DNA from: Escherichia phage Andreotti
Sequence record: MN850610.1
Reading direction: 5' to 3' (one strand)
Length of the DNA stretch: 64,000 nt
Below are positions 3,104 to 42,406 of the stretch, one piece after another. The notes beneath the pieces are model-generated. The model did no database searches and was not told where the DNA came from. It saw only the letters and a program-made list of their open reading frames with translations. Numbering within the stretch: the first letter of the stretch is position 1; each line of letters opens with the position of its first letter. A program made the translations under genes and the position numbers.

Positions 3104-3799
3104 TCAATGTTTAACTAACATGGTTTTGATGTGTGGAAGTATTCTGTTCACCTTCTGCACATTCTTCTCTGTGTCTTCTATAAAACATACTATATTAAAG
3201 TAAGGCAGAATGCAAGACTGAATCATCCTCACTTTCAAACTTTCTGCACTTATAGAGTTAGTCCCAAAACCACGCATAAAAAGCATGTAGTCATGCTCTG
3301 TGTTATGCCTTAAAAACATCTCAGTAGGTATTCTCTGAGATTCACCTCTCGCTGTCAAGAGTCCAATGGCAGCATGACTAGCAATTGCATCAATAATACT
3401 AAAGACATACGTTGGTTTTGCTCTTACAGAGTCAAGAAGATTAGTGTACTGTGAGAATGACCCATCAGTCAATTCCGTTGAGCAATCTTCGTGATTAAAA
3501 TTTGTAAGAACACCATCAATATCTGCTAAGATGAGGTTACCTTTTTCTACAAGGTCTTTATTGACTATGACTAAACTGTCACGTCTTACACCTATAGATT
3601 GTCCGGTCTCTTTGTCCACAACGTTCACAATTGGCTCTGATGTGTGAAACTCTTCAAGTGAACATACAACTTCTCTTGCAGTGTCTTCAAAATCCCTACA
3701 CTGTTCTGGAGTCCATACACAGGAATCAAGACCTAACTCATGAGGATGTAAGTCATAAGCATGGCACAGTACTTCATCAGACTTTTTTAATTTTTTCAT
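3104..3799 (-). CDS. HAD-superfamily phosphatase, possibly 5'(3')-deoxyribonucleotidase-like
   Basis: LILADIDGVLTNF resembles the DxDGVLxDF motif I of HAD/NT5C enzymes; motif sits about 90 aa from the N-terminus, so assignment is tentative. Confidence 0.35.
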   Translation of the reverse strand: MKKLKKSDEVLCHAYDLHPHELGLDSCVWTPEQCRDFEDTAREVVCSLEEFHTSEPIVNVVDKETGQSIGVRRDSLVIVNKDLVEKGNLILADIDGVLTNFNHEDCSTELTDGSFSQYTNLLDSVRAKPTYVFSIIDAIASHAAIGLLTARGESQRIPTEMFLRHNTEHDYMLFMRGFGTNSISAESLKVRMIQSCILPYFNIVCFIEDTEKNVQKVNRILPHIKTMLVKH

Positions 3800-4325
3800 G
3801 GTTTACCTTAGAAATGTTTATTGCAAATTCACATTGAGCGATGACTTTCATATTGTTATAGACATCTTGAGAGTATTTCTTAGCTTTAGGAATTTTGTAC
3901 GAATACCCAGCATTATATGATGCTAAAACTTTTTGTAAAGTCTTCTTTGACTTTGGCTGACCATGCACCTTTGTCCAAAACTCAAGCTCTTTGTGCGTTT
4001 CCTTCGCAGCATAGTCAAAGTCTTTTAAGAGTTTCTTTTTAGCCACATTAGGACTAATTTTGTTACGCTTTACAACAGTCTTCAAGTGATTCTGGAAAAT
4101 ACCATAATCATGTGTCTTTTTATTCTCTACCTTCAGACCTAACTCTGACTCTTGTAAGGCTATAGCAGCTAGAGTGATACCCCAACCTTTACCCATGTTA
4201 TTCTCACCATACTGGTAAGCTTTTAACATGTTTACTTTTTGGCTAATTGATAGCTCTGGGCAGTCAACTGCATAAGATAAGTGTGCTGTAAACATTAAGC
4301 ACAAACCTAGAATCAATTTCTTCAT
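3777..4325 (-). CDS. soluble lytic transglycosylase (SLT domain) with N-terminal signal peptide; endolysin candidate
   Basis: signal MKKLILGLCLMFTAHLSYA; SLT motifs AIALQESELG (catalytic Glu), GIFQ, SYNAGY. Confidence 0.65.
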   Translation of the reverse strand: MKKLILGLCLMFTAHLSYAVDCPELSISQKVNMLKAYQYGENNMGKGWGITLAAIALQESELGLKVENKKTHDYGIFQNHLKTVVKRNKISPNVAKKKLLKDFDYAAKETHKELEFWTKVHGQPKSKKTLQKVLASYNAGYSYKIPKAKKYSQDVYNNMKVIAQCEFAINISKVNHEKIKKV

Positions 4326-4384
4326 TGGTTCTCCTGTTTAGTTTATCGTGACAACAATTATACAGTACTCTGCACAAAACACAA

Positions 4385-4412
4385 ATAAAAAAGGCCGCCG
4401 AAGCAGCCTTTT
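4385..4412. terminator. GC hairpin flanked by A-run and T-run (bidirectional terminator-like)
   Basis: aaaaaaggccgccgaagcagcctttt between convergent-like gap after gene ending 4426. Confidence 0.4.
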
Positions 4413-4425
4413 AAGAAATTACTTA

Positions 4426-5535
4426 TTAGCTTTCACGTTTACGTTGGGAGATAAGTTCTCCAGCAGTACCAACGATGACATGTAAAGCTTCAGTCTTGCC
4501 ATCCCATGCTTTCAGCACTTTACGTTGATTATCAACGATTGCTGCAACTTCATAACGAGACGAGCGCATCTTCATATCGTTGTAATCAGTTGGTACGGAT
4601 ACAACGTCTCGTGGATGGACACGAACCTTCAGAATTGTATCACCTGAGAAACAACGAACATAATCCCAAGCACCAACATGAAGACCTTGAGAGCAAGTCA
4701 CGTTACGGTTATTATCAACCATCCAACGTGGCATTTCTACAATGTTACCCAAATCATTAGGTACTCTGTAGGTGTGGGAGTCAACCAGCTTGCCTTCACG
4801 AGTAGATACTTTCTTCCAACCAATGATGTAGCCTTCTTCATCAATTTCAACATCAAGGTGAGATACGAAGCCCCAAAGTTGTTCTACGGAATCTTTAGAT
4901 GGGTTTTCCATCAGTTTTTCGAAGAACATCACAAGGCGTTCGAAACCTTTATCTCCAGTCTTCATCATGTGAAGAATACGGTCAACCAGAGTAGAACGCA
5001 TCTCAACAGCACCATAGAATAGTTTGTCGCCTTTGATTGTGATAGCACCCTGAGTGAAGTTTTCGATAGACTTACGAATGTTCATCAGTTCAAAGGCTTT
5101 CTTAAACTCACCTTTCACAACATGAACTACAATCTCTTGATAGTTCGGATGAGTAGATTCAACAATTTCAGACTCTGAACCGTAAGTCATAATTACAGAG
5201 TCACCAGTAATCATGTACTCAATCTTGTCATCTTTCTGCATAGCTTCATGCAGTTTATTTACTGGAGCTTTCTGTACAGCATCTTTAACAACCTTTTCAA
5301 CTGGTTTGTCAGCTTTCTTTTTAAAGGTCTTAGCAACTTGCTTCAAAGTCTTCGTAGCTGGTGTAGAAGTCACCTTCTTATTCCCTTTTAAGGTTGCTTC
5401 ATGACGCTCTACAGCACGACCGACTGAACGGGTTGAGGTGTTAAATTTCTGTGCAATAGCGGTTTTAGTCAGCTTGCCCTCTTTAACCAGTTTGTAAATT
5501 TCTGCGTCAATCTGTGCTTTAGTTTTAGTAGTCAT
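4426..5535 (-). CDS. rIIB: rIIB-like protein
   Basis: immediately downstream of the rIIA-like gene in the same orientation and of comparable size to T4 rIIB; no motif verified. Confidence 0.45.
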   Translation of the reverse strand: MTTKTKAQIDAEIYKLVKEGKLTKTAIAQKFNTSTRSVGRAVERHEATLKGNKKVTSTPATKTLKQVAKTFKKKADKPVEKVVKDAVQKAPVNKLHEAMQKDDKIEYMITGDSVIMTYGSESEIVESTHPNYQEIVVHVVKGEFKKAFELMNIRKSIENFTQGAITIKGDKLFYGAVEMRSTLVDRILHMMKTGDKGFERLVMFFEKLMENPSKDSVEQLWGFVSHLDVEIDEEGYIIGWKKVSTREGKLVDSHTYRVPNDLGNIVEMPRWMVDNNRNVTCSQGLHVGAWDYVRCFSGDTILKVRVHPRDVVSVPTDYNDMKMRSSRYEVAAIVDNQRKVLKAWDGKTEALHVIVGTAGELISQRKRES

Positions 5536-33512: not shown

Positions 33513-34024
33513 TGAGAGATTGTGGATTCACACATGAACAGTTAAAGTCTTGGTTAGATTATGACCCCGAAACAGGGGTCTTAACATGGATTGGCAGACC
33601 CCCACATAGTAGTAGGGTGGTTATTGGAAGCCAAGCCGGAGCAATTAAGCGCACAAGGTCTGGTGTGTATATGCACACACAGATTTTAGGATACAGGACA
33701 GGTAATCACCGAATTGCTTGGTTCTGGATGACAGGTAAGTGGCCTGATAAACACATTGACCACAAAGATGGAGATGGTTTGAATAACGCTTGGGACAATC
33801 TAAGAGAGGCCACAAAAGAACAGAATATGTCTAATAGGAGACAACCTAGAACATCAAAAAACTTAAAAGGTACAAGTAGAAGCAAGTCTGGTAAGTGGAT
33901 AGCCCAGATTAACCATAATGGCAAGACTATACATATAGGAACATACACAACAGAAGAAGAAGCCCATAAAGCTTACTGTGAAGCTGCTGTGAAACTCCAC
34001 GGAGAGTTTGCAAAACTATCTTGA
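33512..34024 (+). CDS. HNH homing endonuclease (AP2-like C-terminal domain), free-standing downstream of the polymerase gene
   Basis: HNH region HIDHKDGDGLNNAWDNLREATKEQN; start overlaps polymerase stop. Confidence 0.6.
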   Translation: MRDCGFTHEQLKSWLDYDPETGVLTWIGRPPHSSRVVIGSQAGAIKRTRSGVYMHTQILGYRTGNHRIAWFWMTGKWPDKHIDHKDGDGLNNAWDNLREATKEQNMSNRRQPRTSKNLKGTSRSKSGKWIAQINHNGKTIHIGTYTTEEEAHKAYCEAAVKLHGEFAKLS

Positions 34025-34075
34025 CAAGGTGCTCATGGAAGAGTACCTTATACAATATCTTATATAGGAGGGCTT

Positions 34076-35322: not shown

Positions 35323-36400
35323 AGATGGTTCCTTCAACGTCTGGTCATGCGTTGCTGTAGGTGACAAAGTTATCACAACCTACGGTAAAGAAAATGGCAA
35401 GATGATGTTTGAAGAGTACACAGCAGAGCCTAAGAACATCGGTAAAAAGAATGAGCGTAACGCTGAACAGCAAGCTCTCTTTGAAGTTGCTGCTAAGTAT
35501 AAAAAGCAAGTTGACCGTAAAGGCTACGCTTACACAAAAGAGTCTGCAAAGAATACTGAGAAAGTAGGTGTACAACTTGCTCATGATGCTGCAAAGGTTA
35601 GTCATGCAAAGTATCTGAAGTTCCCTGCTGATGCTCAACCAAAACTTGATGGTGTACGTTGTAGAATTTCAAGACACTTAAGTATTGGCAGTGTATTTAC
35701 AGCATATTCTCGTGAGAATACTGTTTACAAAATCCCTACTGAACTAATACCTGACATTATGGCAATGTTAAGGCTCCACAAAGATGTTGATGAATTTGAT
35801 GGAGAGATTTATGCTCATGGGTGGGACTTAGAAGATATTGTCTCCATGATTAAAAATGAAGACAATCCTGACAGACACTTACTTAAGTTCTACTGGTATG
35901 ATATCTGTGACAGTACTAAAACGTGGCCTGAGCGTAGAGATATTATTGAGACTTCACCATTGAATGACTTTAGAGACGGCTGTAAAGTTGTCCCTGTTAA
36001 ATCTCGTCGTGTAAATTCTTGGGAAGAGTTTGATGAAGCTCATGATAAGTGGGTTGAAGCTAAGTTTGAAGGTGCAATGTACCGTTCAATCTCTGAAGAA
36101 TCTTTCTACGAGTGTGGTCACCGTTCATACTTCTTGATTAAACACAAGAAGATGCACACTGAAGAGTTTAAAGTGACTGGTGTAAAGACCGATAAGCGTG
36201 GTCATGGCAAGTTCGTTGTAGAGACTCTTCCTAATGTCTTTGTAGATGTTTCATGGAAAACTACCCATGAGAAGAAGAAGTATCTTGCTGAACATCCTGA
36301 AGAGTTTATCGGGAAACCTTTAACGGTTCAGTTCCAGAAGATGACTCGTAAGGGGTCTTTACAGTTCCCTGTAGGGCTAGTTATTAGGGATTATGAATAA
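35297..36400 (+). CDS. ATP-dependent DNA ligase
   Basis: motif I KLDGVRC (KxDGxR), later FEGAMYRS and LIKHKK; start set to ATG 35297 after GAGG. Confidence 0.65.
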   Translation: MTILYKQNKDGSFNVWSCVAVGDKVITTYGKENGKMMFEEYTAEPKNIGKKNERNAEQQALFEVAAKYKKQVDRKGYAYTKESAKNTEKVGVQLAHDAAKVSHAKYLKFPADAQPKLDGVRCRISRHLSIGSVFTAYSRENTVYKIPTELIPDIMAMLRLHKDVDEFDGEIYAHGWDLEDIVSMIKNEDNPDRHLLKFYWYDICDSTKTWPERRDIIETSPLNDFRDGCKVVPVKSRRVNSWEEFDEAHDKWVEAKFEGAMYRSISEESFYECGHRSYFLIKHKKMHTEEFKVTGVKTDKRGHGKFVVETLPNVFVDVSWKTTHEKKKYLAEHPEEFIGKPLTVQFQKMTRKGSLQFPVGLVIRDYE

Positions 36401-36403
36401 ACT

Positions 36404-36562
36404 ATGTTCAGTACAGTCATTCTGTTTATACTGGTTGTCTTTGTATTGTCATACGTTGCAAGTAAGCTTTTGGACACATCTTTTGCAATGGGTGTCTTGT
36501 TTACAATCTTTTGTTTCGTGACACATATAGCTATCAGAACTTTTTTTATAAAAAGTTGTTGA
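36404..36562 (+). CDS. small hydrophobic membrane protein (52 aa, not in ORF track)
   Basis: hand-translated MFSTVILFILVVFVLSYVASKLLDTSFAMGVLFTIFCFVTHIAIRTFFIKSC. Confidence 0.3.
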   Translation: MFSTVILFILVVFVLSYVASKLLDTSFAMGVLFTIFCFVTHIAIRTFFIKSC

Positions 36563-36586
36563 CATAGAAAATTTGGTGAGTATACT
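36559..36586 (+). promoter_or_regulatory. sigma70-like promoter TTGACA-N16-TATACT directly upstream of the first repeat array
   Basis: TTGACA at 36559-36564, TATACT at 36581-36586. Confidence 0.45.
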
Positions 36587-36619
36587 GAGCAGCATAAACC
36601 AACGGGTACTCACCAACAT

Positions 36620-36926
36620 CACTTAAGAGTCTTTGAAAAGGGTTTTTTAAGTGATGTGGGGCGAGGCTCGGTGAGGTGGGGTAAGGCATAGTGCGGTGCT
36701 GTTTGGTATGGGTAGTTAGTCTCAGCTACATTAAAATGAGACTTACCTTTTTAAAAGGTCTTTAAACAGGGTCTTTTAATAAGGTTGTGTGATGTGATGT
36801 ATGGTGCTGTGGAGTTTGGTTAGGTCCGGTCAGGTATGGTATGGTGATGTGAGGTATGGGTGGATGGTAGTAGCCACGTTAAAAATCTACCAAGTTTCTA
36901 AAGAGTCTTCTGTTGAGGGTTCTTTA
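36620..36926 (+). repeat. repeat array A: two full modules (hairpin-1, G/T-rich pentamer tract, hairpin-2) plus a terminal hairpin-1 copy
   Basis: hp1 36620-36653 and 36745-36785; GT tracts about 36654-36715 and 36786-36865; hp2 36718-36743 (then T5) and 36866-36891; hp1 variant 36899-36926. Confidence 0.75.
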
Positions 36927-36949
36927 CAAACAACTTAACAATCAACTAA

Positions 36950-37555
<606 letters not shown>

Positions 37556-37557
37556 TT

Positions 37558-37998
37558 ATGAATACAAAAGCATTAGCAGCAAAGTTTAGTTACGGTGACA
37601 CTGTATCACACTCTGAGATGGATACCTTCTTAGGTATTGTGAAGCCAACTTATCAAGGTGACATTGTTAAGTACGAAGATGAAATGAAGGCTTATGCGCT
37701 TACACGTCTAAACCGACTTGAGAAGTTTATTGAGAAGCTTCTTAAAGAAGAGAAGATTTATCTGGTTGCTTCAATGGGTGTTGGTTATCGTGTGGTTGAG
37801 CCTAAGCATCAAGCAACTATTGCAAAACGCAAAATGTCTGGTAAGATTGGTCGTGCTTTAAAGCAAGCCACTCAAGCGATTGAGAATGTGAACACTATGG
37901 CACTTAGCCATCAAGAACGTTCACGACTAATTGAACAGCAAAACCACTTAGCTGCTATGAAAGCTAACATTAACAAGCAACGTAGAAAACCTTTCTAA
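37558..37998 (+). CDS. hypothetical protein (cassette gene 2)
   Basis: 2-nt spacing to gene 1; basic C-terminus; followed by a terminator. Confidence 0.5.
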   Translation: MNTKALAAKFSYGDTVSHSEMDTFLGIVKPTYQGDIVKYEDEMKAYALTRLNRLEKFIEKLLKEEKIYLVASMGVGYRVVEPKHQATIAKRKMSGKIGRALKQATQAIENVNTMALSHQERSRLIEQQNHLAAMKANINKQRRKPF

Positions 37999-38011
37999 GT
38001 TGACTAGGTAG

Positions 38012-38034
38012 CCTCTTCGGAGGCTCCTTTTTAA
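38012..38034 (+). terminator. intrinsic terminator (agcctc-ttcg-gaggct plus T5)
   Basis: GC hairpin with T-run 14 nt after cassette gene 2 stop. Confidence 0.55.
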
Positions 38035-38420
38035 AAGGTCTTTAAACAGGGTCTTTTAATAAGGTATTGTTCGGTGTTGTATGGTAGGGTCTGGTCCGGC
38101 AGGGTCTGGTTCGGTCCGGTAGGGTCTGGTATGGGTAGTTAATCGGAGCTACATAAAAATTCGATTACATCACTTAAGAGTCTTTTAAGAGGGTTTTTAA
38201 GTGAGGTGTGGCACGGTAATGCTAGGTAGGGTCAGGTCAGGTCAGGTGAGGTAAGGTGTGGGTAGTTAGTCTCAGCTACATTAAAATGAGACTTACCTTT
38301 TTAAAAGGTCTTTAAGAGGGTCTTTTAATAAGGTATTGTATGGTGTAGTTTGGTTAGGTATGGTTGGGTGTGGTAAGGTAGGGTATGGAAGGATGGCAGT
38401 AGCCTTATAAAAAATCTGCC
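38028..38420 (+). repeat. repeat array B: three modules (hairpin-1, G/T-rich pentamer tract, hairpin-2)
   Basis: hp1 38028-38067, 38173-38205, 38297-38336; GT tracts 38068-38140, 38206-38267, 38337-38394; hp2 38142-38169, 38270-38295 (then T5), 38395-38420. Confidence 0.75.
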
Positions 38421-38439
38421 AAATAAGCTATAAAATCTG

Positions 38440-38474
38440 TTGACAAGTCAGGTGTTATAGCTTATTTTTATACT
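38440..38474 (+). promoter_or_regulatory. possible promoter (TTGACA with weak -10 TATTTT at 17 nt, TATACT further on)
   Basis: TTGACA 38440-38445; imperfect spacing to the better -10. Confidence 0.25.
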
Positions 38475-38512
38475 CAATGTAATACAAAATTTAATATAAC
38501 TTTGAGGTCATT

Positions 38513-38896
38513 ATGAAAAAGGTTTTATTAGCTGCTGCAATGGTTATGGCAATGAATTTACCAGTTAATGCAACAGAACTTCCAAATGTGGACTTATCAG
38601 GTGTTCCAGAAGACACTTGCCAGATTGTTAAAGGTGTTGCTCTAGCTAATGGTGAGTTACTTAAACCAATCTCTGAAGAGTCTTTAACAGAGATGACTGA
38701 TAAGGTAACTGACTATCAGTATCGTGTTCTTGCAGAGTATTTCCTACAATCTGCAAATATTAAAGAGAAGCACCCTGATGATATTGATGTACAGGCTATG
38801 CTCAATCATCGTATTCAGTTTAAAGAAGACTTGATGCAAAAAGCTATGTATGGTGTTGAGTATTTCTTAGAAAACAGAAGCTGCACAGGTATTTGA
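38513..38896 (+). CDS. secreted/periplasmic protein of unknown function
   Basis: signal peptide MKKVLLAAAMVMAMNLPVNA. Confidence 0.5.
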   Translation: MKKVLLAAAMVMAMNLPVNATELPNVDLSGVPEDTCQIVKGVALANGELLKPISEESLTEMTDKVTDYQYRVLAEYFLQSANIKEKHPDDIDVQAMLNHRIQFKEDLMQKAMYGVEYFLENRSCTGI

Positions 38897-38897
38897 T

Positions 38898-39110
38898 ATG
38901 GCTCTTAAAAAGTTACATCCCAGAAGCGGTTATGGTAAGATAATTGACGATACAGACGGCTTTACAGTCTTTACAGTCATCTGTCAAGATGATTCACAGA
39001 TTGAAAAGGTTCTTGATGATTATCTTAATGATGAACGTGAAAAGGTTAGAGCTACAAACATAGATTCATTGCTTGACACTTCACGCAAACGGAAGAAGAA
39101 AGATGAATGA
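38898..39110 (+). CDS. hypothetical small protein
   Basis: co-directional ORF. Confidence 0.4.
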   Translation: MALKKLHPRSGYGKIIDDTDGFTVFTVICQDDSQIEKVLDDYLNDEREKVRATNIDSLLDTSRKRKKKDE

Positions 39111-39402
39111 GGTTTTTGACCCTTATGCCCCACAAGATGATTGGGAGGCTGATAGAGAGGCTGAAATGGAGAGTTATATTTGTCCAATGGATGTAGACGA
39201 AATGAGAGACTTCGTTGCACATCGTTTTAAGAGAGAGATTAAATCCAGAGGTCTTTCTCAAGAGCAAGTTGCTAAAATTTGTGGTATCTCTCAGGCTCGT
39301 GTATCCAACATAATCCATCTCACTGGTAACGTCTCCCTTGAGTATATGTTGGAAGTATGTGAAAAATTTGGTGTTAATTTCAATTTAAGGTTGGCAGATT
39401 AA
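39103..39402 (+). CDS. helix-turn-helix DNA-binding protein
   Basis: HTH-like segment LSQEQVAKICGISQARVSNIIH; start set to ATG 39103. Confidence 0.45.
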   Translation: MNEVFDPYAPQDDWEADREAEMESYICPMDVDEMRDFVAHRFKREIKSRGLSQEQVAKICGISQARVSNIIHLTGNVSLEYMLEVCEKFGVNFNLRLAD

Positions 39403-39403
39403 T

Positions 39404-39763
39404 ATGAAACGTGAAAACATTATCCACTCTGAAAACTTCGCATTAGGCTTTTATGGCGTACCAACTCACCTTGAAAAGTATTATGGTGTGAAGATTCTCT
39501 CCAATCTCATTATGGCTTACAAAGATGGTAAGATTAAGCACACTGAGAAGAAACGTGTCATGGGCTATATGGCTGTAGGTTCAGCAATCTCGAACATTAA
39601 GCTGGAAACCACTAGCAGTCAGATTGTAAAAGACCACTTCATCAAAGAGCTTTACCAGAATCTTGATGGTGTAGATGTTCAGGCTGTTTGGTTGGATGTT
39701 GATGGTCATAATTACACAAGTTTTGTTTTCAAAAACGATGACATTAAGTGTTTGTTCCCATAA
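39404..39763 (+). CDS. hypothetical protein
   Basis: co-directional ORF. Confidence 0.45.
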   Translation: MKRENIIHSENFALGFYGVPTHLEKYYGVKILSNLIMAYKDGKIKHTEKKRVMGYMAVGSAISNIKLETTSSQIVKDHFIKELYQNLDGVDVQAVWLDVDGHNYTSFVFKNDDIKCLFP

Positions 39764-39776
39764 TAGGTGATTAACT

Positions 39777-40292
39777 ATGATTGATATCTTCTTACAAGAT
39801 GCTCATGCAGACTTCCTTAAAGAGATGCTTAAAAAGTTTATGGCTTCACAGTATGAGAATGAAGCATCTTTTAAAATAGTTACATGTGGCGACGAAGCTG
39901 GTTTTGTTGAGATTGAACATGAAGGTACTGGAAAGACTGTTTGTAAGCTACCTGATAGCATGTTCTCTAAAACGTTCTTAACAAAGACTAGTATAAATGT
40001 TAAGCTTGTTCCTCAGATTGAAACATACTCTGGTACAGATTACCCTAAAGGCTTCAAGTCACTGATGAAACACTTCTTAGATGACTTTGTGAGTAATCTT
40101 CTAAGTGAGGTAACAGAAAGCCGTACAATATTAACTGTAGAGAATCTAGGGAACACTATCAGGGTTACTTCTGACCGATATTCTATGAGTCTCTTCGACT
40201 TTGTACCTAAGAACTTTGATGGTATTCTGGATGAAGAAGATGACTGTGTAGACTTTATATTGGTTCTTGAACCAGTTTTTGAGGTTAAATAG
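39777..40292 (+). CDS. hypothetical protein
   Basis: co-directional ORF. Confidence 0.45.
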   Translation: MIDIFLQDAHADFLKEMLKKFMASQYENEASFKIVTCGDEAGFVEIEHEGTGKTVCKLPDSMFSKTFLTKTSINVKLVPQIETYSGTDYPKGFKSLMKHFLDDFVSNLLSEVTESRTILTVENLGNTIRVTSDRYSMSLFDFVPKNFDGILDEEDDCVDFILVLEPVFEVK

Positions 40293-40553
40293 ATGAAAAT
40301 TGAACACTGCTATGAGTCTGATGGAACACCTATCCGTTGTCCACATTGTGGGTGTACAGACTTACAAGGCGAGGTAAGTGAAATAGTCAACGGTCATATT
40401 GCTGAAGAAAGTACCCGATGCACAGTGTGTAATGAAATTATCGCTTTCTGGGCTTATGGTTCATACCAACCCTCTCCACATTTTATCTACCATCGTAGTA
40501 AAGTTGTGAAGAGTGTCATCAACTGGTTCATTAAGAAAGGGTTTACAAAATGA
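40293..40553 (+). CDS. small zinc-ribbon protein
   Basis: CPHCGC...CTVCN motifs. Confidence 0.45.
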   Translation: MKIEHCYESDGTPIRCPHCGCTDLQGEVSEIVNGHIAEESTRCTVCNEIIAFWAYGSYQPSPHFIYHRSKVVKSVINWFIKKGFTK

Positions 40554-41095
40554 TTAAACTAATATTTGCAAGTGGTGAAAACGGTGAATTTGGTACTCCA
40601 ACTGGTATGCCGTGGCCTCGACATAAACAGGACATGCAAGAGTTTAAGAGACTCACTAAAAATAACTTAGTAGTCATGGGTAATGAGACTTTTAAGACTC
40701 TGGGTAGTAAACCTTTACCAGAACGTTCAAACCTCATCTTAACAAATTCTGTACCATACTTAGGCATAGACTTTGGCAAAGATGATGTAATGTATGCTAA
40801 AGCCAGTAAAGAGTCATTTGGAGCATTTTTGAAGTATCTTGATAGCTCTATTGATGAAGATGTCTTTGTAATTGGTGGTGCAGGTGTTCTTGTCGATGCT
40901 TTGCCGTATGCTGGTGTAGTTTTCCATACAGTTTTCCATAAAGTCACTGAAGAGGCCACTGTGTATTTACCTTTTGAAAACTTCTTCGATAAACTGTATG
41001 ATAACCGTGTATTTGCAAAGGTGCAGTCAAGACCCTCAGATGATGGTAAAGCAACCTTTGAGATTTATGTTCCACAAGTAAAAGGACACTTTTGA
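40550..41095 (+). CDS. frd: dihydrofolate reductase
   Basis: MIKLIFASGENGEFGTPTGMPW...VVMGNETFKTLG...LPERSNLILT matches the DHFR N-terminal pattern. Confidence 0.75.
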   Translation: MIKLIFASGENGEFGTPTGMPWPRHKQDMQEFKRLTKNNLVVMGNETFKTLGSKPLPERSNLILTNSVPYLGIDFGKDDVMYAKASKESFGAFLKYLDSSIDEDVFVIGGAGVLVDALPYAGVVFHTVFHKVTEEATVYLPFENFFDKLYDNRVFAKVQSRPSDDGKATFEIYVPQVKGHF

Positions 41096-41096
41096 T

Positions 41097-41996
41097 ATGT
41101 CACAAGCTGATTTGAGTTACAAAAATATCCTGAACCATGTTCTATCTGTTGGTGAACTGCGTACTACACGAACTGGGGATGTTATCTCTGCATTTGCTCC
41201 ACCACAGTTTCGTTTTGATATGCGTACTGGTTTCCCACTCTTAACATCTAAACAGGTGTTTACACGGCAAGTTATTGGGGAAGCTTTATGGTTCCTGAAT
41301 GGTGAGAATAAACTTGGCGAACTCCGTTACCGTACTTGGGGTGAAAATGATGGGGAACGCTGGACTATCTGGTCAGATGATTTTAAACGCTGGTTAAGCT
41401 CTAACTATTCTTCTGAGCAAGACTGGTTAGAAGATGCAGGTGGGAGAATCTACGGGGTTCAGTGGAGAAACTTTGAAGGTCATAACGGTTGTGTTGTAGA
41501 CCAGTTAGAGACCTTAGTAACGAAGATGAAAGGTGATATCACAGACCGTTACATGCTTGTTAATGCTTGGAATGCAGCAGATATTGCAGCTAACTCAATG
41601 GCTTTAGCACCTTGTCATGTTCTGTTTCAGATTTATATCACTAACGAAGGTGAGGTTGACTTACAATGGTATCAACGTTCTGTAGACACCTTTTTAGGTC
41701 TTCCATTTAACATTGCATCTTATGGTTTTATTCTGGAAGTACTTTGCAAGATGACTGGATATACTCCACGGTACTTGATAGGTGTCTTTGGGGATACTCA
41801 GATTTATCAGAACCATATGAAGCAGGTTTATGAACTGATGAACAATGAAGAGTTCCATGCACCAACTTTTGAGATTGGTCTACAACTTAATACTTTAAGT
41901 GACCTGAAACATCTTACTGCAAGTGACTTTATCGGTGGAATTAGTAACTACCAACATGCAGGAAAGATTGAAGCACCTTTGTCAGTAGGTAAGTAG
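41097..41996 (+). CDS. thyA: thymidylate synthase
   Basis: active-site region ALAPCHVLFQIYI (catalytic Cys). Confidence 0.8.
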   Translation: MSQADLSYKNILNHVLSVGELRTTRTGDVISAFAPPQFRFDMRTGFPLLTSKQVFTRQVIGEALWFLNGENKLGELRYRTWGENDGERWTIWSDDFKRWLSSNYSSEQDWLEDAGGRIYGVQWRNFEGHNGCVVDQLETLVTKMKGDITDRYMLVNAWNAADIAANSMALAPCHVLFQIYITNEGEVDLQWYQRSVDTFLGLPFNIASYGFILEVLCKMTGYTPRYLIGVFGDTQIYQNHMKQVYELMNNEEFHAPTFEIGLQLNTLSDLKHLTASDFIGGISNYQHAGKIEAPLSVGK

Positions 41997-42000
41997 AAAC

Positions 42001-42028
42001 AAAAAAGGCTCCCGTAAAAAGGAGCCTT
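42001..42028. terminator. terminator between convergent thyA and minus-strand block (hairpin ggctcc-cgtaaaaa-ggagcc)
   Basis: A6 before and T-rich stretch after the hairpin; strongest for the minus-strand transcript. Confidence 0.5.
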
Positions 42029-42034
42029 AAAATT

Positions 42035-42406
42035 TTATTTTTCAGTATTCTTTGTGTTCTTCTCAGTAATAGCTTGGAGGGCTGATACTGATTGAGCCAG
42101 ATTATTTACACTGTCAGAGAATTTATCAAGAGTTTTGGTAAGTTTTGCGTTTTCACCCTTAACATTCTCTAACTGAACTTTCTGGTTCTCCATCCCTAGC
42201 TGAATCAGTCTCATGTCAGACTGTAAATCACGAATAGCTGAATAGTTACTTTTGGAATAATTATCTAGCTGCTGTAACTTTGTTGTGACAGACACTTCTT
42301 GCTTACCACTTGAAACTTGCATAGTGGTATACATCCCAATAACACTAAAAATACCAACAACAATTACACCAATATTGTTTTTAAAAGCTTCCTCTAGCCA
42401 CTTCAT
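42035..42406 (-). CDS. membrane-anchored coiled-coil protein
   Basis: N-terminal TM IGVIVVGIFSVIGMY then helical region. Confidence 0.4.
   Translation of the reverse strand: MKWLEEAFKNNIGVIVVGIFSVIGMYTTMQVSSGKQEVSVTTKLQQLDNYSKSNYSAIRDLQSDMRLIQLGMENQKVQLENVKGENAKLTKTLDKFSDSVNNLAQSVSALQAITEKNTKNTEK

Follow-up and report, generated by a model that had tools for sequence, protein, structure and literature searches.

Six small genes upstream of frd and thyA in Escherichia phage Andreotti and their counterparts in Felix O1-like phages

Felix O1-like phages are widely used in Salmonella and E. coli typing, biocontrol and therapy, and how they time transcription is still unknown according to the Felix O1 genome paper (PMC3185647). 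The locus considered here lies within 64,000 nucleotides (nt) of Escherichia phage Andreotti (sequence record MN850610.1), hereafter the window, and comprises six small genes (g1 to g6) directly upstream of frd and thyA (td). Its closest described counterparts are ORF87-ORF82 of Felix O1, which are followed by frd (ORF81) and td (ORF80), and genes bas63_0037-0032 of Bas63 (JohannRWettstein). The Andreotti block has about 94% DNA identity to both, with order, spacing and flanking frd/td unchanged, and the Felix O1 proteins (NP_944938, NP_944937, NP_944934, NP_944933, NP_944932 and NP_944930) share 83-99% amino-acid identity with their g1-g6 orthologues. Andreotti differs from Felix O1 in an extra cassette of about 2 kb, made up of repeat arrays and two genes, between the DNA ligase gene and g1.

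The window as a whole is Felixounavirus. Megablast of positions 37900-41200 gave 97.1% identity to Escherichia phage heid over 100% of the query and matched 251 phage records, nearly all of them Felixounavirus of Escherichia, Salmonella and Shigella. The six-gene block is already known and annotated as a sequence feature; in relatives the third gene (g3) is labelled 'transcriptional regulator' and the other five 'hypothetical protein'. It is ordinary, catalogued phage "dark matter", and its sequence gives no pointer to a new kind of system. A preliminary description of this DNA had recorded six short plus-strand genes here, which agree exactly with the open reading frame (ORF) list:

38513-38896, plus strand: g1, 127 amino acids, phrog_4332; Felix O1 ORF87, Bas63 gene 37
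38898-39110, plus strand: g2, 70 amino acids, phrog_4473; Felix O1 ORF86
39103-39402, plus strand: g3, 99 amino acids from ATG, phrog_1373; Felix O1 ORF85, Bas63 gene 35
39073, plus strand: alternative TTG start of g3, giving 109 amino acids
39404-39763, plus strand: g4, 119 amino acids, phrog_4116; Felix O1 ORF84
39777-40292, plus strand: g5, 171 amino acids, phrog_4422; Felix O1 ORF83
40293-40553, plus strand: g6, 86 amino acids, phrog_2993; Felix O1 ORF82, Bas63 gene 32
40550-41095, plus strand: frd (dihydrofolate reductase), annotated in all relatives
41097-41996, plus strand: thyA/td (thymidylate synthase), last gene of the unit

Conservation of the block

The main practical result is a correction: this is a core block under constraint and no variable anti-defence island. 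Each of the six genes is intact in 26-27 of 27 Felixounavirus sequences, and the ratio of nonsynonymous to synonymous substitutions (dN/dS; pairwise Nei-Gojobori on the same 27 sequences) is 0.07 for g1, 0.04 for g2, 0.06 for g3, 0.03 for g4, 0.14 for g5 and 0.11 for g6; frd and thyA have ratios of 0.09 and 0.03, respectively. Since they are intact in relatives and their ratios fall between 0.03 and 0.14, g1-g6 are real genes under purifying selection. Chance or antisense ORFs are ruled out by these ratios together with the end-to-end match of each protein to one PHROG family (E 1e-27 to 1e-88); antisense ORFs in the ORF list have no support of either type. Among the six PHROG families only phrog_1373 (g3) has a function label.

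The preliminary description had likened the block to clusters of small, fast-evolving genes and proposed comparing presence and absence across related phages. The picture of a fast-evolving accessory cluster did not survive for the block as a whole. As a 2154-nt block the cluster keeps a near-constant length (2154-2156 nt among the matches listed) and 93-98% DNA identity in about 214 genomes, its dN/dS resembles that of frd and thyA, and all six genes occur in unchanged order in 36/36 loci of Felixounavirus, Mooglevirus and Suspvirus taken from GenBank and IMG/VR. The block is a fixed core feature of these three genera under strong purifying selection. No variation in presence was found among the 36 loci, and the proposed comparison is uninformative because the block is core and constrained.

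Fast divergence is limited to g1 and g5, and to comparisons between genera. Between-genus amino-acid identity is 31-35% for g1, 50-60% for g2, 64-79% for g3, 62-71% for g4, 33-41% for g5 and 59-66% for g6, set against 57-67% for frd and 78-82% for thyA; g3 and g4 are thus more conserved between genera than frd. In distant Ounavirinae (Kolesnikvirus and a Hafnia phage) g4 alone is detectable in the arm that holds the polymerase, ligase and frd genes (the pol-ligase-frd arm).

Variants of the block were seen. Mooglevirus and Suspvirus have an extra 167-residue gene (phrog_9143) between g4 and g5, at 3834-4337, 3268-3768 and 4238-4741 of loci L003, L004 and L005, respectively; it is absent from Felixounavirus. 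In GenBank OM386661 (Escherichia phage vB_EcoM_ESCO45) the block is covered to 87%, in two pieces, the sole such case among the Felixounavirus-level matches (≥93% identity) listed; this may be a natural partial deletion inside the cluster.

Transcription unit and leader elements

The following elements bound the unit or precede g1:

38421-38467, no strand assigned: inverted repeat with 19-nt arms AAATAAGCTATAAAATCTG / CAGGTGTTATAGCTTATTT, enclosing the -35 hexamer
38440-38474, plus strand: sigma-70-like promoter P2, with TTGACA at 38440-38445 and 10/12 consensus matches
38481-38498, plus strand: AT-rich near-palindrome AATACAAAATTTAATATA, located after the promoter and before the ribosome-binding site of g1
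42005-42028, no strand assigned: bidirectional intrinsic terminator, which closes the unit and is shared with a convergent holin gene

From g1/g2 through frd/thyA the junction gaps are +1, -8, +1, +13, 0, -4 and +1 nt, and the g6 stop codon overlaps the frd start (ATGA). Terminator-like hairpins near the unit were found only at 38010-38025, which lies upstream after an unrelated gene, and at 42005-42028 after thyA; the latter corresponds to Felix O1 t79/t80 (PMC3185647). This layout suggests that g1-g2-g3-g4-g5-g6-frd-thyA form one tightly packed eight-gene unit running from P2 to 42005-42028. The six genes had earlier been placed 'near' nucleotide-metabolism genes; the adjacency is correct, but they are not merely near frd and thyA, with which they appear to share the unit. 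In Felix O1 the reverse-transcription PCR (RT-PCR) signal reaches its maximum at 25 min for ORF83, 84, 87, td and ligase and at 10 min for frd (PMC3185647, Table 3); ORF82, 85 and 86 are not listed in that table.

The promoter, put forward at first as a possible one, gains from comparison: TTGACA at 38440 is kept in every relative, and GTTGACA together with TATACT is kept upstream of g1 in all 36 related loci. For the -10 element of P2 there are two options, TATTTT after 17 nt (ending at 38468) or TATACT after 23 nt (38469-38474). In relatives without the cassette, a canonical TTGACA-N16-TATACT follows the ligase gene directly. A generic promoter scan of the region performed at chance level (16 sites found, 16.7 expected). 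The narrower pattern TTGACA-N15-24-TATAC occurs three times in the window (34021, 36559 and 38440), each time on the plus strand of the replication module, where 0.63 were expected. Each of these promoter-like elements (34021-34075, 36559-36620 and 38421-38500) has an inverted repeat in or around its spacer, and in two of the three the AT-rich TATACAAnATnTTATATA comes next, immediately ahead of a ribosome-binding site.

The inverted repeat at 38421-38467 is unique in the window and had no equal in 100 shuffles (0/100). As RNA it would form a hairpin of -22.4 kcal/mol (z = -3.0) followed by a U-run. The repeat is identical in all loci that have the upstream repeat cassette, and cassette-less relatives have unrelated arm sequences. 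As an operator for g3 the large palindrome was downgraded, since relatives with an identical g3 recognition helix carry other arm sequences. At cassette-less loci (L004 1960-2030; L005, L030, L033) an inverted repeat brackets the promoter -10 region and leader upstream of the g1 orthologue, with arms that differ and stay complementary (CCGGTAG/CTACCGG, CATAGCAAG/CTTGCTATG, CCTGACGGG/CCCGTCAGG and CTTAGTGGG/CCCACTAG). Such covariation suggests a conserved DNA or RNA hairpin around the cassette-less promoters. An Rfam search of 36000-42200 gave no matches.

The AT-rich element at 38481-38498 behaves otherwise: it is kept as ATAyAAAATwTnATATAG in the g1 leader of every genus, cassette-less loci included. 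A second copy lies at 34049-34066, in the same placement relative to another TTGACA element and ribosome-binding site, and the element is absent from heid 1-44000 (44 kb, mostly outside the window). It is a better candidate for the g3 operator than the large palindrome, or may be an element of the 5' untranslated region.

The individual gene products

XRE/Cro-C1-type proteins, which include the helix-turn-helix (HTH) domain of the PezA antitoxin and the controller C-proteins of restriction-modification systems, are the closest known group to g3. The protein scores 39.4 bits against Pfam HTH_3 (PF01381; cut-off 23, E 6e-10, profile positions 2-52 of 55), narrowly passes HTH_37 as well (27.9 against 27) and matches PADLOC controller-protein models at E 5e-5. 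Its nearest natural sequence in the PDB is the HTH of PezA (E 0.007); a stronger PDB match, 8vd6, is a repeat protein named only 'CAP REPEAT'. The HTH call of the preliminary description, made on the motif LSQEQVAKICGISQARVSNI, is borne out by the presence of that motif in g3 and by the HTH_3 score. We conclude that g3 is an XRE/Cro-C1-type HTH protein and probably binds DNA. It departs from the group in being encoded by a strictly virulent phage and in a 40-residue acidic, aromatic N-terminal extension that is without counterpart there and surpasses the HTH scaffold in conservation. Across genera the recognition helix, ISQ(A/S)RVSNI, does not vary; the acidic extension MNEVFDPYAPQDDWEADREAEME is near-invariant, and a 25-residue acidic N-terminal segment is invariant or almost so between genera. 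Since the orthologues of the other genera all start at an ATG with MNEVFDPY, 39103 is the likely start of g3. Within the block, to which the search was limited, g3 is the annotated regulator.

T4 Spackle (Sp, gp61.3), a periplasmic superinfection-exclusion protein, is the described protein most like g1 in kind: both are proteins of virulent myoviruses with a Sec signal peptide, a mature part of about 100 residues and a cysteine pair. The likeness is in kind of protein only, and homology was not detected; a Spackle assignment was rejected on an hhalign probability of 17%, where the signal peptides alone align. The signal peptide of g1, MKKVLLAAAMVMAMNLPVNA|TE, was judged by inspection (charged n-region, h-region of 10-15 residues, small residues at -3 and -1, lipobox absent) and consists of MKK, a hydrophobic run and then VNA|T, with no Cys at +1. 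It had been noticed from the Andreotti sequence and proved to recur in nine orthologues, whose mature parts are merely 31-34% identical; the equivalent peptides end in AVA, ASA or AYA in eight of the orthologues. Two cysteines, C36 and C124, are invariant and are retained even in orthologues about one-third identical. The product of g1 is an exported protein by these features, probably periplasmic, with a Sec-type signal peptide. The 258 phage records in which it was found all belong to Felixounavirus, Mooglevirus or Suspvirus, and searches of Pfam, NCBIfam and the PDB gave no match.

Lar alleviates type I (EcoKI) restriction and enhances modification. Its Rac prophage representative, RalR, and g6 are both small phage proteins whose N-terminal part holds a CP(x)CG(C/G)...CxxC zinc ribbon. 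The zinc-ribbon call for g6 (CPHCGC...CTVCN) held up, with C16, C19, C43 and C46 invariant in 12 homologues; a four-cysteine ribbon is also common to many unrelated zinc-ribbon families. The knuckles are spaced by 23 residues in g6 and by 17 in RalR, and a (F/Y)(W/F)(A/S)YG..P motif and a lineage-specific C-terminal helix are g6's own. As a control, RalR/Lar of MG1655 scored 53.5 bits on Pfam Lar_restr_allev (PF14354) and belongs to phrog_599, not phrog_2993. The g6 protein reached 17.2 bits on TIGR03655 (cut-off 39.6) and did not match PF14354, on which its Sf13 orthologue scored 15 bits (cut-off 28.6). Of the 12 family members, six gave sub-threshold matches to TIGR03655 (best E 5e-5) and nine to the ECs_2282 zinc-binding model, and generic zinc-ribbon families were each matched by merely one to three members. 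BLASTP of g6 against RalR aligns CPxCGC alone, and the match covers just the two zinc knuckles. Lar is not mentioned in any of the database names that were read for the g6 cluster. A more diverse Lar set was sought: the IMG/VR scan gave only Rac prophage copies of 98-100% identity, and tblastn against phages gave seven records. Membership of g6 in the Lar family was rejected, as it lies below every curated Lar threshold; a remote tie between g6 and Lar within a broader phage/prophage zinc-ribbon group is possible.

The zinc-ribbon core of g6 (residues 7-60) occurs in 412 phage records, among whose phages are RB49, Yersinia phage TG1, Klebsiella and Vibrio siphoviruses and Erwinia phiEa21-4. 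A g6-like gene lies directly after a DNA methyltransferase gene in RB49 (L039 2968-3297), directly before prs-nadV in phiEa21-4 (L124 2447-2743) and between nrdD and nrdG in the Ounavirinae record LPML1 (L126 2438-2692); elsewhere such genes stand among small unnamed genes. The prs-nadV pair serves NAD salvage and is a known NAD-based counter-defence module. The g6-like gene seems to relocate beside different enzyme genes.

A knockout screen has touched the Bas63 orthologue of g6. According to its main text, gene 32 is essential to a lesser degree in DH10B than in BW25113, MG1655 and S17-1, and the authors call it Lar-like and interpret it as anti-restriction (PMC11482910). By the same account two of the strains in which the gene matters lack intact type I systems, and the phenotype therefore cannot be classical Lar activity. 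The report of host dependence is independent experimental support for a part played by g6 in host interaction. Two other gene-essentiality preprints, HIDEN-SEQ and a study by transposon mutagenesis, include no Felix O1-like phages. Where the gene numbers of that text could be compared with Bas63 locus tags, they agree for 65, 79, 80, 84 and 85, and number 74, given as 'ribonucleotide reductase activator', is tag 0073 (NrdG), which leaves an uncertainty of ±1 in the numbering; among tags 0031-0033 only 0032, the g6 orthologue, encodes a zinc-ribbon protein.

By the searches made, g2, g4 and g5 are orphans restricted to Ounavirinae. The g2 protein gave no match in Pfam, NCBIfam or PADLOC; its C-terminal tail, VRATN(I/L)DSL(I/L)DTSRKR(K/R)KKDE, is near-invariant. 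The label 'heme-degrading enzyme-like' that JLBYU phage records attach to g2 is unsupported by Pfam or NCBIfam profile searches, and the same holds for their label 'nucleoside triphosphate hydrolase' on g4. Of the six, g4 is the most widely conserved: it occurs in all Ounavirinae genera examined, always in the pol-ligase-frd arm, and keeps 56 invariant columns among nine sequences with identity down to 61%. Among 1.84 billion representative proteins, searched exhaustively with HMMER, five were true relatives. Its AlphaFold2 model is unusable (predicted local distance difference test score, pLDDT, 50), and PDB sequence and profile searches gave no match. The g5 protein is acidic (isoelectric point 4.6) and its model (pLDDT 75) consists of two units, each of a helix and four strands; no match of this model to a known fold was found. 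In Citrobacter phage Mijalis (L003) the g5 gene is interrupted, and in SUSP2 (L034) it is truncated. Large-scale protein searches gave about 20 clusters for g5 and 12 for g4, all from Ounavirinae and with uninformative names.

The reading frames of g5 and g6 are continuous and parted by one stop codon (40282-40300), TAG in 13/26 and TAA in 13/26 related loci. The two proteins fall in one 90%-identity cluster of a protein collection, and this sharing suggests that a fused or read-through g5-g6 call exists somewhere.

Taken over all six proteins, NCBIfam and PADLOC gave only the HTH and weak zinc-ribbon matches. PDB searches by phmmer and profile hmmsearch, which covered g1, g3, g4, g5 and g6, had the weak PezA HTH hit of g3 as their sole natural match. 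The remark in the preliminary description that two of the proteins are without motifs is true of g4 and g5 in profile, family and PDB searches. Its wider statement, that no function can be assigned to the cluster, stands for g1, g2, g4 and g5 after Pfam, NCBIfam, PHROGs, PADLOC, PDB and large protein searches and structure prediction. It fails for g3, an XRE-type HTH protein, and g6 has a host-dependent phenotype reported in the main text of PMC11482910.

Possible roles of the block

We propose that the cluster is a mixed middle-period core operon rather than a hot-swappable anti-defence island, a reading that we consider somewhat probable. The eight-gene unit would lie in the replication/nucleotide-metabolism arm, with the six small genes as its promoter-proximal two-thirds. 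Our confidence in the individual roles is graded. It is highest for g3, which would be a sequence-specific binder, likely repressing or tuning its own promoter via the AT-rich near-palindrome. Next comes g1, predicted to be a periplasmic, disulphide-bonded helical protein with an envelope-directed function such as superinfection exclusion or lysis control. In third place, g6 would be a zinc-ribbon host-interaction factor, remotely related to Lar if at all, whose importance is set by the restriction background of the host. We are least confident about g4 and g2, which may be accessory partners of replication or nucleotide metabolism, and about g5, which may be a dispensable, faster-evolving acidic protein.

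Several points weigh against this proposal. The canonically spaced -10 element of P2 is weak (TATTTT), and the good TATACT stands at 23 nt from the -35 hexamer. The RT-PCR timing is coarse, and several structural genes score 'early' in the same data (PMC3185647). The operator assignment would rest on two AT-rich copies, and the element could equally act at the RNA level. For g2, g4 and g5 there is no supporting homology or fold, so that their roles are proposed through guilt by association only.

The first alternative, which we regard as unlikely, is a host-takeover or anti-defence island of the acr-aca kind, in which g1, g2, g4, g5 and g6 would inhibit host defences or host machinery and g3 would be an Aca-like repressor. 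There is an outward likeness: a strong host-type promoter with an overlapping inverted repeat, and small genes of which five have no homologues of known function, with an HTH gene inside the operon. Further points in its favour come from individual genes: (i) the Bas63 orthologue of g6 is conditionally essential and is read by the authors as anti-restriction, according to the main text of PMC11482910; (ii) g6-like genes stand beside the DNA methyltransferase gene of RB49 and prs-nadV of phiEa21-4; (iii) between genera, g1 and g5 change far more quickly than frd does, and two phages have a disrupted g5. The accessory, patchy distribution of acr-aca loci is not seen here, however, for neither presence nor order varies in 36/36 loci or about 258 genomes. 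The dN/dS values equal those of housekeeping enzymes, and g3 and g4 exceed frd in conservation. The Andreotti operon is core and runs on into frd and thyA instead of lying in an early or leading region, and the Felix O1 timing is 'middle'. In relatives the recognition helix of g3 stays the same and the large palindrome does not. PADLOC models, which cover defence proteins, gave HTH hits only. Among the small proteins of the operon an anti-defence lead exists for g6 only; in the main text of the screen (PMC11482910) genes 33-37 go unnamed, and only an effect of host strain is given for gene 32.

Weaker again, and in our view improbable, is the alternative that the small proteins are accessory or regulatory subunits for Frd, ThyA, ribonucleotide reductase or ligase, by analogy with the T4 deoxynucleoside triphosphate (dNTP) synthetase complex: it would account for the operon shared with frd and thyA and the overlap of the g6 stop with the frd start, for the presence of g4 in the pol-ligase-frd arm of every Ounavirinae genus examined, for the position of g6-like genes in other Ounavirinae, immediately upstream of prs or between nrdD and nrdG, and for a peak time equal to that of td and ligase in Felix O1, but the searches made found no homology or fold similarity to metabolic or replication proteins, an exported g1 cannot act on enzymes of the cytoplasm, g6-like genes outside Ounavirinae stand among unrelated small early genes, and g5 is dispensable in two phages.

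A bolder combination would make g6 a new counter-restriction family, g3 a dedicated regulator of operon timing and g1 a new periplasmic superinfection-exclusion factor; that all three hold together is a long shot. If it were so, the g6 family (CxxC...CxxC...WAYG..P; phrog_2993 and relatives) would span Ounavirinae, the T4-like Krischvirus and Tegunavirus and several siphoviruses, would be distinct from Lar and would act on type IV (McrA/McrBC/Mrr-type) or other host barriers, and the acidic tail of g3 would be a conserved effector-binding tail. Defining g3, the pan-subfamily orphan g4 and g6, with its family across unrelated virulent phages, would fill annotation gaps.

Two further observations concern the surroundings of the block and its records. 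Between the DNA ligase gene and g1 lies a variable cassette (36404-38512). It starts with a 52-residue hydrophobic ORF (36404-36562), promoter P1 (36558-36586) and the GGT-rich repeat array A, and ends with genes 36953-37555 (phrog_4652) and 37558-37998 (phrog_5926), the terminator at 38010-38025 and repeat array B. Among 36 related loci the gap from ligase to g1 measures between 88 and 2139 nt. About 110 nt upstream of g1 are near-identical between Felixounavirus and some Mooglevirus or Suspvirus loci whose g1 is only about 33% identical; because this stretch is near-identical beside a divergent g1, the cassette appears to move between genera.

GenBank MG065668, MG065664 and OK283618 and one further record carry Felix O1-like (Ounavirinae) sequence and are labelled Campylobacter phage A126/A132, Listeria phage LPML1 and, for the last, a Staphylococcus phage. 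The Campylobacter-labelled records are about 95-98% identical to the gene cluster. These host labels look doubtful; contamination or mislabelling may lie behind them.

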